Part shown: positions 4,182 through 32,000 of the stretch, in pieces | Numbering within the stretch: the stretch's first letter is position 1 | Layout: the number at the start of each line of letters is the position of its first letter | Origin: Corynebacterium glutamicum ATCC 13032 | Lineage (GTDB): Bacteria > Actinomycetota > Actinomycetes > Mycobacteriales > Mycobacteriaceae | NCBI RefSeq assembly: GCF_000011325.1 | Contig: NC_003450.3 | Location: 3,030,001-3,062,000 of the forward strand | DNA: 32,000 nt | Reading direction: 5' to 3' | The notes under the pieces: model-generated | Told to the model about the DNA's origin: nothing | What the model saw: only the letters and a program-made list of their open reading frames with translations | Database searches by the model: none | Translations under genes and position numbers: made by a program

Positions 4182-5441
4182 GTGGGAAAACATGCAGCTG
4201 AAACATCGGAACCGAAGAAAAATTCACCGTGGCGCATTGGTTTGTTGACGTTTTTGATTTCTTCAGTTGTCGTGACGCTGGTGGGCATGGTGATGCTGTG
4301 GCCGGATTCTGATGATGTGGTGTTGGCGGATAACTTTTCGCAGACGTTTGCGGGAAATCATGAGCAGGTGGATGGAACGATCACGCTCGTTGATAATTCT
4401 GCGTGTAATTCGCCAGACACCGGCCGAGTTTTTGCGGAAAGCCCCACGATTTCTGCGGAGCCGGCAACGTTGGAGTGCGTGCGTGCACTCGTAGACATCA
4501 CATCGGGTGCCAATGAGGGGCAGAAAACTCAGCTGATCACTTACGCGCAACCTGGTGATCCGGAGTTTTCCGAGGGCGACAAGATCCGCATGGTGGAAAC
4601 ACCGGATACAAATGGCGAGATCATCTACACCTTTGCTGATTACCAGCGCGGACCGGCGTTGATCATTTGGGGTGTGGTTCTCATTGTGGCGATGGGAGCT
4701 TTCGCGGCGTGGCGAGGTGTGCGTGCGCTGGTTGGTTTGGTCGTCACCTTGGGAATTGTTGGTATTTTCTTGCTGCCAGGATTGGCCAGCGGGCACGATG
4801 CGATGTGGTTGGCGCTGGTGTGTGGCGCGGCGATCTTGTTGATTGTGGTGCCGATGGTTCACGGAATCAACTGGAAATCGGCAGCTGCGTTGGCGGGCAC
4901 GCTGGTGGCATTGTTGTTGTCGGCGGTGTTGTCGTGGGCGTCGATCGTCACCACGAATTTGCGCGGACTGGGCGATGAGAATCATCTGAAGATCATCAAC
5001 TATTTGCCGGAGGTGTCGATCTCTGGGTTGCTGTTGGCATCGTTCATCATTGGTACCTTGGGTGTGCTCAACGATGTGACGATCTCACAGGCGTCGACCA
5101 TCAATGAGCTCGCGGAAATCGATGAAGATGCCACACCGTGGAGGCTGTTTACCGGCGCGATGTCGGTTGGTCGCGACCACATTTCCTCAATGATTTACAC
5201 CCTGGTGTTGGGCTACACCGGCGCAGCTTTGCCACTGTTGCTGCTGCTTTCCTTGGCAGAGCGTCCGCTGATTCAGACTCTGAGCAGCGATGTTATGGCC
5301 GGCGAGCTGCTGCGTTCAGGTGTCGGTGCGCTGACGTTGACACTGGCGGTGCCGATCACGACGCTGATCGCCGCATGGACGGTACCCGGCGATGAGCCTG
5401 CCCCAGATGATGGCAAGCCCCGCCTGATCCACCGCCACTAA
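4182..5441 (+). CDS. YibE/F-family integral membrane protein
   Basis: GTG start 6 nt after the AAGGAG SD. One N-terminal TM segment is followed by an extracytoplasmic domain and about 7 TM segments. The motif GRDHISSMIYTLVLGYTGAALPLLLL is typical of YibE/F proteins. Confidence 0.6.
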   Translation: MGKHAAETSEPKKNSPWRIGLLTFLISSVVVTLVGMVMLWPDSDDVVLADNFSQTFAGNHEQVDGTITLVDNSACNSPDTGRVFAESPTISAEPATLECVRALVDITSGANEGQKTQLITYAQPGDPEFSEGDKIRMVETPDTNGEIIYTFADYQRGPALIIWGVVLIVAMGAFAAWRGVRALVGLVVTLGIVGIFLLPGLASGHDAMWLALVCGAAILLIVVPMVHGINWKSAAALAGTLVALLLSAVLSWASIVTTNLRGLGDENHLKIINYLPEVSISGLLLASFIIGTLGVLNDVTISQASTINELAEIDEDATPWRLFTGAMSVGRDHISSMIYTLVLGYTGAALPLLLLLSLAERPLIQTLSSDVMAGELLRSGVGALTLTLAVPITTLIAAWTVPGDEPAPDDGKPRLIHRH

Positions 5442-31107: not shown

Positions 31108-31148
31108 AAAAAATGGGAGCTTCTAGATTTCTAGAGGCTCCTTTTTTC
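31108..31148. terminator. Bidirectional intrinsic terminator
   Basis: ggagcttctag (31116-31126) pairs with ctagaggctcc (31131-31141). This is 11 bp including one G-U pair. It is preceded by an A6 run and followed by a T6 run. Confidence 0.8.
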
Positions 31149-31183: not shown

Positions 31184-31227
31184 GAAAGAGGGGACCTTCT
31201 AAAGCGTTCTAGAAGGTCCCCTCTTTC
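31184..31227 (-). terminator. Very strong hairpin ending the accD3 transcription unit
   Basis: Perfect 17-bp stem: gaaagaggggaccttct (31184-31200) pairs with agaaggtcccctctttc (31211-31227). It lies 10 nt downstream of the mini-ORF stop. There is no clear U-tail on the minus strand. Confidence 0.65.
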
Positions 31228-31236
31228 TTGAAAGGC

Positions 31237-31320
31237 TTAGTAGCTCAAGAATCCTTGCAGGTAAGACAGGCTTACGCTGAGGAAGTCAATACCCGACAGA
31301 ACTGCGAAGATGGTTGCCAT
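31237..31320 (-). CDS. Candidate 27-aa mini-protein MATIFAVLSGIDFLSVSLSYLQGFLSY. It is below the ORF-track size cut-off.
   Basis: ATG at 31318-31320 is preceded by GAGGAG with a 6-nt spacer. The codons are mostly the C/G-ending ones common in the flanking genes. The TAA stop at 31237-31239 is followed 10 nt later by the 17-bp hairpin. The ORF lies 57 nt downstream of the accD3 stop with no intervening terminator. Confidence 0.4.
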   Translation of the reverse strand: MATIFAVLSGIDFLSVSLSYLQGFLSY

Positions 31321-31377
31321 TGCGGTCTCCTCTGGTGAATTAGTTACAGGATTTCTATCTGGATAATTCTTTGGACG

Positions 31378-32000
31378 TTACATCGGCATGATCGTGTGCT
31401 TCTTGTCGAGGTCTCGCACAGCCTTGGTTTCCAGCTGGCGGACTGCTCGGCGAAGCACCAAACGGGTCTCTGCAGGTTCGATCATGGCGTCGATGTAACC
31501 ACGCTCGGCGGCCACATATGGGCTGGTCATGTTCTCATCGTAGAAGTCCATGAACAGTTTCTTCATGTATTCACGCTGCTCAGGTGGGGCGGCTTCGAGC
31601 TGCTTGCCCTGGATCATCACGACAGCTGCGGCTGCGCCCATCACGGCGATCTGTGCGGTTGGCCATGCGAAGTTGAGGTCACCGGTGAGGTTCTTGGAAC
31701 CCATCACGGCATATGCTCCGCCGTAGGCCTTGCGCACGATCAAGGAAATCTTAGGGACGGTCGATTCCACCACTGCGAAGGCTAGCTTTGCGCCACGGTG
31801 AATCAAACCGACCTTCTCTTGGTCCACGCCAGGCAGGTAGCCAGGGGTGTCCACGACGAAGATGATCGGGATGTTGTAGGCGTCGCAGATACGGATGAAG
31901 CGGGCGCCCTTGTCGGCGGCGTCAGCGTCGATGCAGCCTGCCTTATCCATTGGTTGGTTGGCCACCACACCGACTGCCTTGCCATCAACGCGGGCGAAGG
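31378..32000 (-). CDS. accD3: Acyl-CoA carboxylase carboxyltransferase beta subunit (3' part; the gene continues past the right edge)
   Basis: The C-terminal carboxyltransferase domain is present (FVVDTPGYLPG...RKAYGGAYAVMG...AWPTAQIAVMG). The frame is open to base 32000. The neighbourhood fits the mycolate-condensation accD3 as I recall. Confidence 0.8.
   Translation of the reverse strand, partial: FARVDGKAVGVVANQPMDKAGCIDADAADKGARFIRICDAYNIPIIFVVDTPGYLPGVDQEKVGLIHRGAKLAFAVVESTVPKISLIVRKAYGGAYAVMGSKNLTGDLNFAWPTAQIAVMGAAAAVVMIQGKQLEAAPPEQREYMKKLFMDFYDENMTSPYVAAERGYIDAMIEPAETRLVLRRAVRQLETKAVRDLDKKHTIMPM

Follow-up and report, generated by a model that had tools for sequence, protein, structure and literature searches.

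A conserved 27-codon reading frame behind accD3 of Corynebacterium glutamicum: a candidate envelope micro-protein

The locus behind accD3

The subject of this work is a small open reading frame (mini-ORF) of 27 codons that follows accD3, a carboxyltransferase gene of mycolate synthesis, in Corynebacterium glutamicum ATCC 13032. It was studied within a stretch of 32,000 nucleotides of the chromosome (NC_003450.3, positions 3,030,001 to 3,062,000), which is referred to below as the window, and positions are those of the window unless another numbering is mentioned. The transcription unit for mycolate condensation, pks13-accD3 (cg3178-cg3177), ends with the mini-ORF which, judging from its orthologues, its codon usage and its transcript, is very probably a real translated gene. 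Its product may be a micro-protein of the cell envelope, a reading that we put forward tentatively.

Table 1. Features of the accD3 3' region in the window
Feature	Position	Strand	Evidence or remark
accD3, 3' part (cg3177 = pccB; mycolate-synthesis carboxyltransferase)	31378..32000	-	Pfam Carboxyl_trans, E = 4.8e-60
Spacer between accD3 and mini-ORF, 57 nt	31321..31377	-	best local fold only -4.3 kcal/mol, no strong hairpin
Shine-Dalgarno sequence GAGGAG	31332-31327	-	read directly; 6-nt spacer to ATG
Mini-ORF, 27 codons + TAA, product MATIFAVLSGIDFLSVSLSYLQGFLSY	31237..31320	-	ORF listing, selection, codon usage, transcript
Hairpin, perfect 20-bp stem and 4-nt loop; predicted terminator of the accD3/mini-ORF transcript	31184-31227	-	fold
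Intrinsic terminator of the convergent cmpL1-cg3175-cg3176 operon	31115..31142	+	12-bp stem, then TTTTTT

The features of the locus are collected in Table 1. The accD3 gene, whose product shows 77-92% identity to its orthologues across Corynebacterium, ends with a TAA codon at 31380-31378 on the minus strand and extends past the end of the window. On the same strand the ATG of the mini-ORF is found at 31320-31318 and its TAA at 31239-31237, and the predicted terminator hairpin begins 9 nt past this stop. The spacer between the two genes harbours an AATTAT hexamer (31368-31363), a possible -10 element according to a published RNA-seq study (PMC3890552). A consensus scan of the window and of two further loci (L025 and L048) gave no sigma-70-like promoter for the mini-ORF, the consensus not being tuned to Corynebacterium. 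The genes that converge on the mini-ORF from the other side were identified by Pfam as MMPL (CmpL1, cg3174), LPG_synthase_TM (cg3175) and DUF3054 (cg3176), the names being those of PMC7775120. The same arrangement, i.e. fadD32, pks13, accD3 and the mini-ORF in this order, facing the DUF3054, LPG_synthase_TM and MMPL genes, is seen in Corynebacterium auris too.

The codon usage of the mini-ORF is that of a resident gene. The in-frame log-odds score is 0.27 per codon, compared with 0.28 +/- 0.19 in the real genes of the window, and the other five frames over the same DNA score between -0.07 and -1.04 per codon. In addition, the DNA scores above random synonymous recodings of its own peptide (p = 0.004). 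A preliminary description, made from the letters of the window, had pointed to a translatable unit between the accD3 stop and the strongest hairpin of the window, with ribosome-binding signal, spacer, start, 27 codons and stop in place, with locally typical codon usage, a peptide containing five Ser residues, and a position at the 3' end of a fadD-pks-accD3 condensation operon. Our analysis bears out each of these points, the last one by the Pfam assignment of the neighbours and the synteny in C. auris.

The predicted terminator is indeed the strongest local fold of the entire window on either strand (-35.6 kcal/mol in a sliding 50-nt fold). In an 81-nt context it folds with -40.5 kcal/mol, corresponding to z = -6.5 relative to shuffled sequences. 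An Rfam search of the region gave no family match, only sub-threshold eukaryotic miRNA-type matches on the hairpin. Note that the convergent intergenic region contains two separate terminator hairpins about 40 nt apart, one for each operon, and not one bidirectional terminator; that of cg3176 is listed at 3034421-3034446 in the numbering of the RNA-seq study (PMC3890552).

Transcription of the mini-ORF can be read from published data, as the RNA-seq of ATCC 13032 (Pfeifer-Sancar et al. 2013, PMC3890552, supplement file 8) includes a 518-nt minus-strand transcript, 3034659>3034142, that covers it. In window coordinates this minus-strand transcript runs from 31354 to about 30837, and its printed sequence begins 25 nt past the accD3 stop. 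It spans the Shine-Dalgarno sequence, the entire mini-ORF and the hairpin, then runs antisense into cg3176, and it was filed as 'antisense transcript to cg3176, no TSS detected', where TSS stands for transcription start site (PMC3890552). The same study describes cg3177-cg3178 as a primary operon, and predicts a cg3177 terminator at 3034486-3034535 that was scored 'no significant termination' (PMC3890552). This terminator is the hairpin listed in Table 1, and it is leaky in the RNA-seq data. Most simply, the RNA of the mini-ORF is the 3' part of the pks-accD3 message that continues past the leaky terminator. The transcript described as antisense to cg3176 is probably a read-through product of the accD3/mini-ORF mRNA rather than a dedicated antisense RNA.

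The preliminary description considered the mini-ORF unannotated-looking, which is correct for ATCC 13032, where it has no cg number and cg3176 designates the adjacent DUF3054 gene. It does not hold for some other strains, since the GenBank entries of C. glutamicum R (BAF55777.1), SCgG1/SCgG2 and Z188 contain exactly the same peptide, labelled a hypothetical protein. The peptide has no Pfam match at E <= 10 (Pfam includes the PorA family) and no NCBIfam model, and its sequence is not printed in any paper of the literature searched. In other words, the mini-ORF is known to databases as a sporadic hypothetical protein, unnamed and unstudied. That literature appears to contain no description of the mini-ORF as a conserved and transcribed gene that is under selection and closes the condensation operon, and the same appears to be true of the genus-wide micro-protein slot behind accD3 that is presented below.

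Orthologues, selection and the genus-wide slot

The comparisons are based on loci anchored on the C-terminus of AccD3, which comprise 80 loci of species-representative Corynebacterium genomes and 80 metagenome loci. The best AccD3 match among the species-representative genomes is that of Corynebacterium callunae (92%). In the nearest relatives of C. glutamicum, peptides resembling that of the window sit directly after accD3, and these orthologues, which we term a-type, represent six lineages at species level within the C. glutamicum clade. The sequences are those of the window (MATIFAVLSGIDFLSVSLSYLQGFLSY), C. callunae (L002, MSIISVLFGLEIFGTILPYFQGLLSY), Corynebacterium pacaense (L003, MTIIAILFGLDIFSTVLSYIQGLFSY), a metagenome-assembled genome (L020, MTILAILSGIDVLSASLAYAQGFLSF), Corynebacterium gallinarum (L025 and L101, MTILAVLSGIDILTTFVAYIQGLFS) and a metagenome contig (L090, MTVLAILSGIDILSSALSYFMGLFW). 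One further locus was left out of the comparisons: L001 (NZ_CP113104.1, 'Streptomyces sp. NA13 plasmid pNA13', 178345-186131) is C. glutamicum chromosomal DNA within a 186-kb record. It is 96% identical to the window, the differences being homopolymer indels. The long-read record seems to be contaminated or misassembled.

The a-type orthologues carry the substitution pattern of a protein-coding gene. The ORF and its start codon are kept in the relatives, and the substitutions are biased to synonymous sites, with pairwise mismatches of 0.39, 0.125 and 0.62 at codon positions 1, 2 and 3, respectively. Synonymous sites are near saturation (proportion of synonymous differences, pS, 0.51-0.94) at nonsynonymous proportions (pN) of 0.17-0.34. 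The dN/dS ratio (nonsynonymous to synonymous substitution rates) is 0.12-0.22 in the four pairs with a computable dS; with 26 codons these values are noisy, the direction is unambiguous. Mean nucleotide identity is 62% within the ORF and falls to 32% in the 45 nt upstream and to 20% in the 60 nt downstream. The antisense frame overlapping the mini-ORF is interrupted by stops in three of the six species. In a neighbour-joining tree of AccD3 the seven a-type tips group together to the exclusion of all others; the a-type arose once and was then retained. Its origin lies in the ancestor shared by the C. glutamicum, C. callunae, C. pacaense and C. gallinarum lineage, and purifying selection has maintained it from then on.

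Most other Corynebacterium species carry, in the slot after accD3, a different micro-protein of 28-41 residues, which we call b-type. Its consensus is MLSSxLDxxG[DE]xINYxxM..., in which M1, S3 and D7 are invariant. A hidden Markov model (HMM) of the b-type matches 53 of the 80 species loci, in each case directly 3' of accD3 and on the same strand, and it finds nothing significant elsewhere in the six frames of about 680 kb of fetched loci. Together with the five a-type cases, a mini-ORF is present in 58 of 81 loci; the 23 loci that are devoid of it include the Corynebacterium diphtheriae and Corynebacterium pseudodiphtheriticum groups. Among the 56 cleanly delimited mini-ORFs, an ATG start is found in 54 and a Shine-Dalgarno core in 53, and the net charge is mostly -1 or -2. 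The core 24 codons show mismatches of 0.47/0.30/0.47 at the three codon positions, compared with about 0.71 in the 60 nt upstream. The b-type copies are found in the range of L004-L081 and L084-L163, about 20-220 nt past the accD3 stop (e.g. L055, 4655-4747, and L082, 8001-8117), and many of them have Gly/Ser-rich tails such as ...GDPLYNLGSSF or ...ALSSK.

Larger searches gave the same picture. A b-type profile search of 5.8 billion proteins returned 81 matches. All of them are tiny and free of Pfam domains, and those that carry a name are called 'hypothetical'. When 1.84 billion representatives were scanned exhaustively with HMMER, 57 clusters at 50% identity resulted, all clearly b-type. The b-type has no Pfam or NCBIfam model. 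Going by these sequence searches, the mini-ORF slot downstream of accD3 is confined to Corynebacterium as far as searched.

A few loci depart from the general layout. L043 (~4665-4815) carries a decayed or altered b-type copy, MLSTAEALAGAGAGAGAWAWAW..., across a GGGGCC-type repeat expansion, and the b-type copy of L031 (~4717-4927) lacks a stop codon and extends to 69 residues. Another ORF, non-hydrophobic and 51 residues long (MSRSTIWESPKTVGQYSNPYRNSGVSTATPSAVWEVGIFTPPANSSTVVAS), is located at +147 to +170 past the accD3 stop in L023, L027 and about 20 metagenome loci (L093-L112). These loci form one group of near-identical contigs that lack the mini-ORF, and the recurrence of the 51-residue ORF may reflect low divergence.

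The relation between the two types is less clear than their common position. Both lie in the same slot and on the same strand 3' of accD3, with a Shine-Dalgarno sequence and a terminator after the gene, and both are of similar size, acidic, and have few or no basic residues. On the other hand, the b-type is amphipathic (hydrophobic moment 0.38, compared with 0.11-0.14 in the a-type) and its invariant M1, S3 and D7 are not shared by the a-type. The window peptide, which has T3 and V7, did not match the b-type profile at E < 10 (shuffle-calibrated p = 0.23), and it was not retrieved by the exhaustive b-type HMMER scan. Comparison of the two profiles by hhalign gave a probability of 10%, and shuffle-calibrated HMM p values ranged from 0.08 to 0.77. 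We also considered homology on the basis of an in-register L8-S9-G10 common to both types, and discarded it at a permutation p of 0.44. Either the a-type is an orthologue that has diverged beyond recognition or it is a replacement in the same slot.

The position of the hairpins is a common trait of the loci. A comparable strong hairpin lies no more than 90 nt past the mini-ORF in 51 of 56 loci, and is found in the spacer in only 12 of them. In some species (L025 of C. gallinarum, L037, L044 and L048) a strong terminator-like hairpin is located inside the spacer, and the mini-ORF follows 140-220 nt downstream with its own Shine-Dalgarno sequence; the spacers of the last three measure 209-222 nt. 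In C. gallinarum the hairpin is followed by CTTTTCT, and the mini-ORF has an upstream TATCAT besides its own Shine-Dalgarno sequence (features at 4626-4672 and 4722-4727 of L025). This combination speaks for a gene that stands on its own more than for one tied to the operon, and the lineages with a hairpin inside the spacer suggest that the mini-ORF is transcribed independently there.

Properties of the peptide and its possible function

The window peptide consists of 27 residues, of which the initiator Met is probably removed as residue 2 is Ala, leaving 26. Its calculated average mass is 2943.4 at full length and 2812.2 once Met is cleaved off. It has an isoelectric point of 4.05, a grand average of hydropathy (GRAVY) of 1.30 and a hydrophobic moment of 0.11. 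None of the six a-type orthologues contains Lys or Arg, and their net charge is negative. Residues I4, L8, G10, D/E12, Y20, Q22, G23 and S26 are conserved in the five sequences that were aligned, and L090 departs from them at Q22 and S26. As regards hydroxyl residues, T/S3 is present in all six sequences, S26 and an S or T at position 15 in five each, and S9 in four. The penultimate residue is Ser in four of the six, one has a C-terminal Ser, and L090 has neither. Ser or Thr residues with small or hydrophobic neighbours are found in the window peptide at T3, VLS9G, LS15VS17LS19Y and LS26Y, the published mycoloylation motif being too loose to discriminate among them.

Membrane insertion energies were estimated with a simple, position-independent Hessa-type scale, using the best 19-residue window of each sequence. 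The a-type clade falls between +2.1 and +4.1 kcal/mol, with the window peptide, which has a mid-helix Asp, at +4.1. The corresponding values are +3.4 for fragments of the mycomembrane protein ProtX, +6.2 for the b-type median, +7.1 for PorA and +9.1 kcal/mol for PorH, and the Escherichia coli peptides AcrZ, KdpF and CydX, for which provisional sequences were used, range from -0.7 to -2.9 kcal/mol. The traits of a classical inner-membrane micro-protein, i.e. a favourable insertion energy and flanking basic residues, were not seen in the window peptide. On this simple model the peptide is unlike a classical Sec/YidC-inserted helix, and would group with the leaderless corynebacterial envelope peptides.

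We speculate, with less than even confidence, that the peptide is a mycomembrane or envelope micro-protein that shares its physico-chemical class with ProtX, PorA and PorH, and we favour this over a role as an accessory factor of mycolate synthesis. The product would be a leaderless, acidic, Lys/Arg-free, Ser/Thr-rich hydrophobic helix of 26-27 residues, made along with mycolate when the sigma-D-controlled operon is on. It would act in the cell envelope, most likely in association with the mycomembrane, where one of its Ser or Thr residues could be O-mycoloylated by Cmt1/MytC, and it is not a homologue of PorA, PorH or ProtX. Several arguments lead to this view besides the physico-chemical class. 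The genes of the accD3 operon (fadD2, pks and pccB) are reported in the sigma-D regulon together with porA, porH and mycoloyltransferases (PMC11175481). Mycoloylation takes place on Ser, less often on Thr, among small or hydrophobic residues and with no strict motif, so that only a loose context is needed, and small proteins escape bottom-up proteomics (PMC11066868). Finally, the slot is genus-restricted, fast-evolving, often lost and once replaced, unlike the adjacent machinery that is universal among mycolate producers, which argues for a surface component rather than a subunit of the machinery. The new small mycoloylated or mycomembrane peptide of the preliminary description thus survives as the best functional guess, and the PorA-like VLSG argument on which it was based does not.

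A number of observations speak against an envelope peptide. No Ser is invariant in the six orthologues, where only the Thr/Ser at position 3 is universal, and there is no detectable homology to PorA, PorH, ProtX or the b-type family. The a-type is nearly non-amphipathic (hydrophobic moment 0.11, compared with 0.33 for PorH), the known mycomembrane micro-proteins are encoded at loci of their own, outside biosynthetic operons, and in a published matrix-assisted laser desorption/ionization (MALDI) analysis of solvent extracts no small mycoloylated species were named other than PorA, PorH and ProtX (PMC5310785). The insertion energies should be read with the simplicity of the scale and the provisional E. 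coli comparator sequences in mind.

The alternative that deserves the most attention is a membrane-associated accessory factor of mycolate synthesis or export, which would bind or tether AccD3/AccBC, Pks13/FadD32 or CmpL1 at the cytoplasmic membrane, in a manner parallel to AcrZ-AcrB, KdpF-KdpABC and CydX-CydAB or to the small epsilon subunits encoded after carboxyltransferase genes. As a rule, the genes of bacterial micro-proteins are grouped with those of their partners, and in Streptomyces pccB/accB are immediately followed by pccE/accE. Such a role fits the place of the mini-ORF at the end of the pks13-accD3 operon, just ahead of the terminator and facing the convergent MMPL, LPG_synthase_TM and DUF3054 genes, and it also fits the high GRAVY and low hydrophobic moment of the peptide and the absence of the peptide from the published MALDI series (PMC5310785). 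However, the machinery is conserved in all mycolate producers while the mini-ORF is restricted to one genus as far as searched, 23 of 80 Corynebacterium species keep accD3 but have no mini-ORF, one clade has a replaced or radically altered sequence, and in C. gallinarum a terminator-like hairpin parts the mini-ORF from accD3. The peptide also lacks flanking basic residues, its clade has insertion energies of +2 to +4 kcal/mol, and it matches neither the Pfam ACC_epsilon model nor any other. On balance we consider an accessory factor possible, and somewhat doubtful.

The remaining explanations are much less plausible. The preliminary description had regarded a spurious ORF in a 3' untranslated region as an equally good reading, and one may more generally think of an ORF that is untranslated or has no peptide function, being part of the accD3 3' untranslated region, a terminator leader or the 5' part of a cg3176 antisense RNA. 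A lone 27-codon ORF is common by chance, and the sole published description of the region is that of the antisense transcript reading through the hairpin. However, the spurious ORF is rejected by the codon-position periodicity and by a conservation that ends at the ORF borders, and the saturated synonymous sites with few replacements, the conserved Shine-Dalgarno sequence and ATG, the adapted codon usage and the lack of an Rfam family match all speak against a non-coding function, which is very unlikely: constraint at the RNA level would not keep one frame while third positions vary freely. Even less credible is a type I toxin-like hydrophobic peptide or other selfish element in the convergent intergenic region. 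Some type I toxins are indeed of similar size and hydrophobicity, and sense and antisense transcripts overlap in this region, but the mini-ORF keeps a stable position behind accD3 across the genus instead of the patchy multi-copy pattern of toxin loci, no further copies are present in the window or the fetched loci, the Shine-Dalgarno sequence is strong and unoccluded, and the peptide is acidic, not basic. Just as improbable is a paralogue of PorA with O-mycoloylation on the VLSG Ser, and as a claim of homology it is refuted. The PorA context given in the preliminary description is accurate, since the published S15V mutagenic primer translates to L-D-V-L-(S15>V)-G-S-G, with S15 being mycoloylated (PMC5310785), next to V-L-S9-G in the window peptide. 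The resemblance goes no further: hhalign of PorA against the a-type profile aligns only these four columns (P = 0.026; permutation p = 0.2), there is no Pfam match, and the locus is not the porH-porA operon. Ser9 was also considered as a conserved modification site and dismissed, as it is Phe in two of the six orthologues (C. callunae and C. pacaense). By these alignments VLSG in the window peptide is a chance tetrapeptide.

If the envelope reading is extended to the entire genus, the slot could represent an unrecognised class of envelope micro-proteins through which mycolate synthesis is coupled to the assembly of the mycomembrane. Its members would be made stoichiometrically with mycolate, exported without a signal, and then either mycoloylated or used as a porin-assembly (PorH) factor of the sigma-D regulon, and the version of the C. 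glutamicum clade would have evolved independently. This extension is highly speculative and, in our estimate, rather improbable.

The locus is of interest for several reasons. In mycolate-producing bacteria, few loci have been studied or targeted by drugs as much as fadD32-pks13-accD4, and a conserved extra cistron has gone unnoticed in its Corynebacterium model, with the transcript filed as antisense RNA. An envelope peptide would join PorA, PorH and ProtX, which are so far very few as leaderless micro-proteins of the mycomembrane, would bear on export and on the selection of substrates by Cmt1, and would provide natural sequence variants for probing Cmt1 recognition; an accessory factor would open a new way into the organisation of condensation at the membrane. 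In either case, anyone who deletes or inserts DNA at the accD3 3' end, or who studies the cg3176 'antisense RNA', may unknowingly disrupt the mini-ORF.

Comparison with known systems

It is instructive to compare the window peptide with the small proteins that are encoded near carboxyltransferase genes or that act in membranes. AccE/PccE epsilon subunits are small proteins encoded directly downstream of the carboxyltransferase beta-subunit gene, i.e. in the position of the mini-ORF. They (ACC_epsilon) are soluble and roughly 60 residues long or more, whereas the window peptide has 27 residues, is strongly hydrophobic and matches no Pfam model. AcrZ, KdpF and CydX are single hydrophobic helices that are encoded with a membrane complex or act on it. 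Their insertion energies are favourable, whereas that of the window peptide is unfavourable, and the latter has a mid-helix Asp and five Ser residues.

The closest parallels are found among the mycomembrane proteins of Corynebacterium. PorA (45 residues) and PorH (57 residues) are alpha-helical subunits of mycomembrane porins that are small, leaderless and acidic like the window peptide. Both are O-mycoloylated on Ser, and PorA has the tetrapeptide VLSG in common with the window peptide. The differences are that PorA and PorH are encoded in an operon of their own, porH-porA, and are amphipathic, whereas the a-type gene follows accD3 and its peptide is almost uniformly hydrophobic.

ProtX (cg2875) is an O-mycoloylated mycomembrane protein of 38 residues that is modified on the penultimate Ser37 (PMC5310785), and it is the receptor of phage Cog. 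We rebuilt 30 of its 38 residues from published primers (MTSVFDIIQSIF-5-LVGSIFA-3-GVFDSIVTASS). Aligned with the a-type profile by hhalign, these fragments matched in one column only (P = 0.075). A homology between ProtX and the b-type was considered as well and not accepted: an ungapped register test suggested similarity (p = 0.002), but neither hhalign (P = 0.015) nor shuffle-calibrated HMMER (p = 0.05-0.08) nor the exhaustive search bore it out. ProtX is encoded at a different locus, and the penultimate Ser that is modified in it is not universal in the a-type. Nevertheless, the general features agree: as far as the 30 residues show, ProtX and the window peptide are both tiny, leaderless, free of Lys and Arg, acidic and Ser-rich, and they have similar insertion energies.

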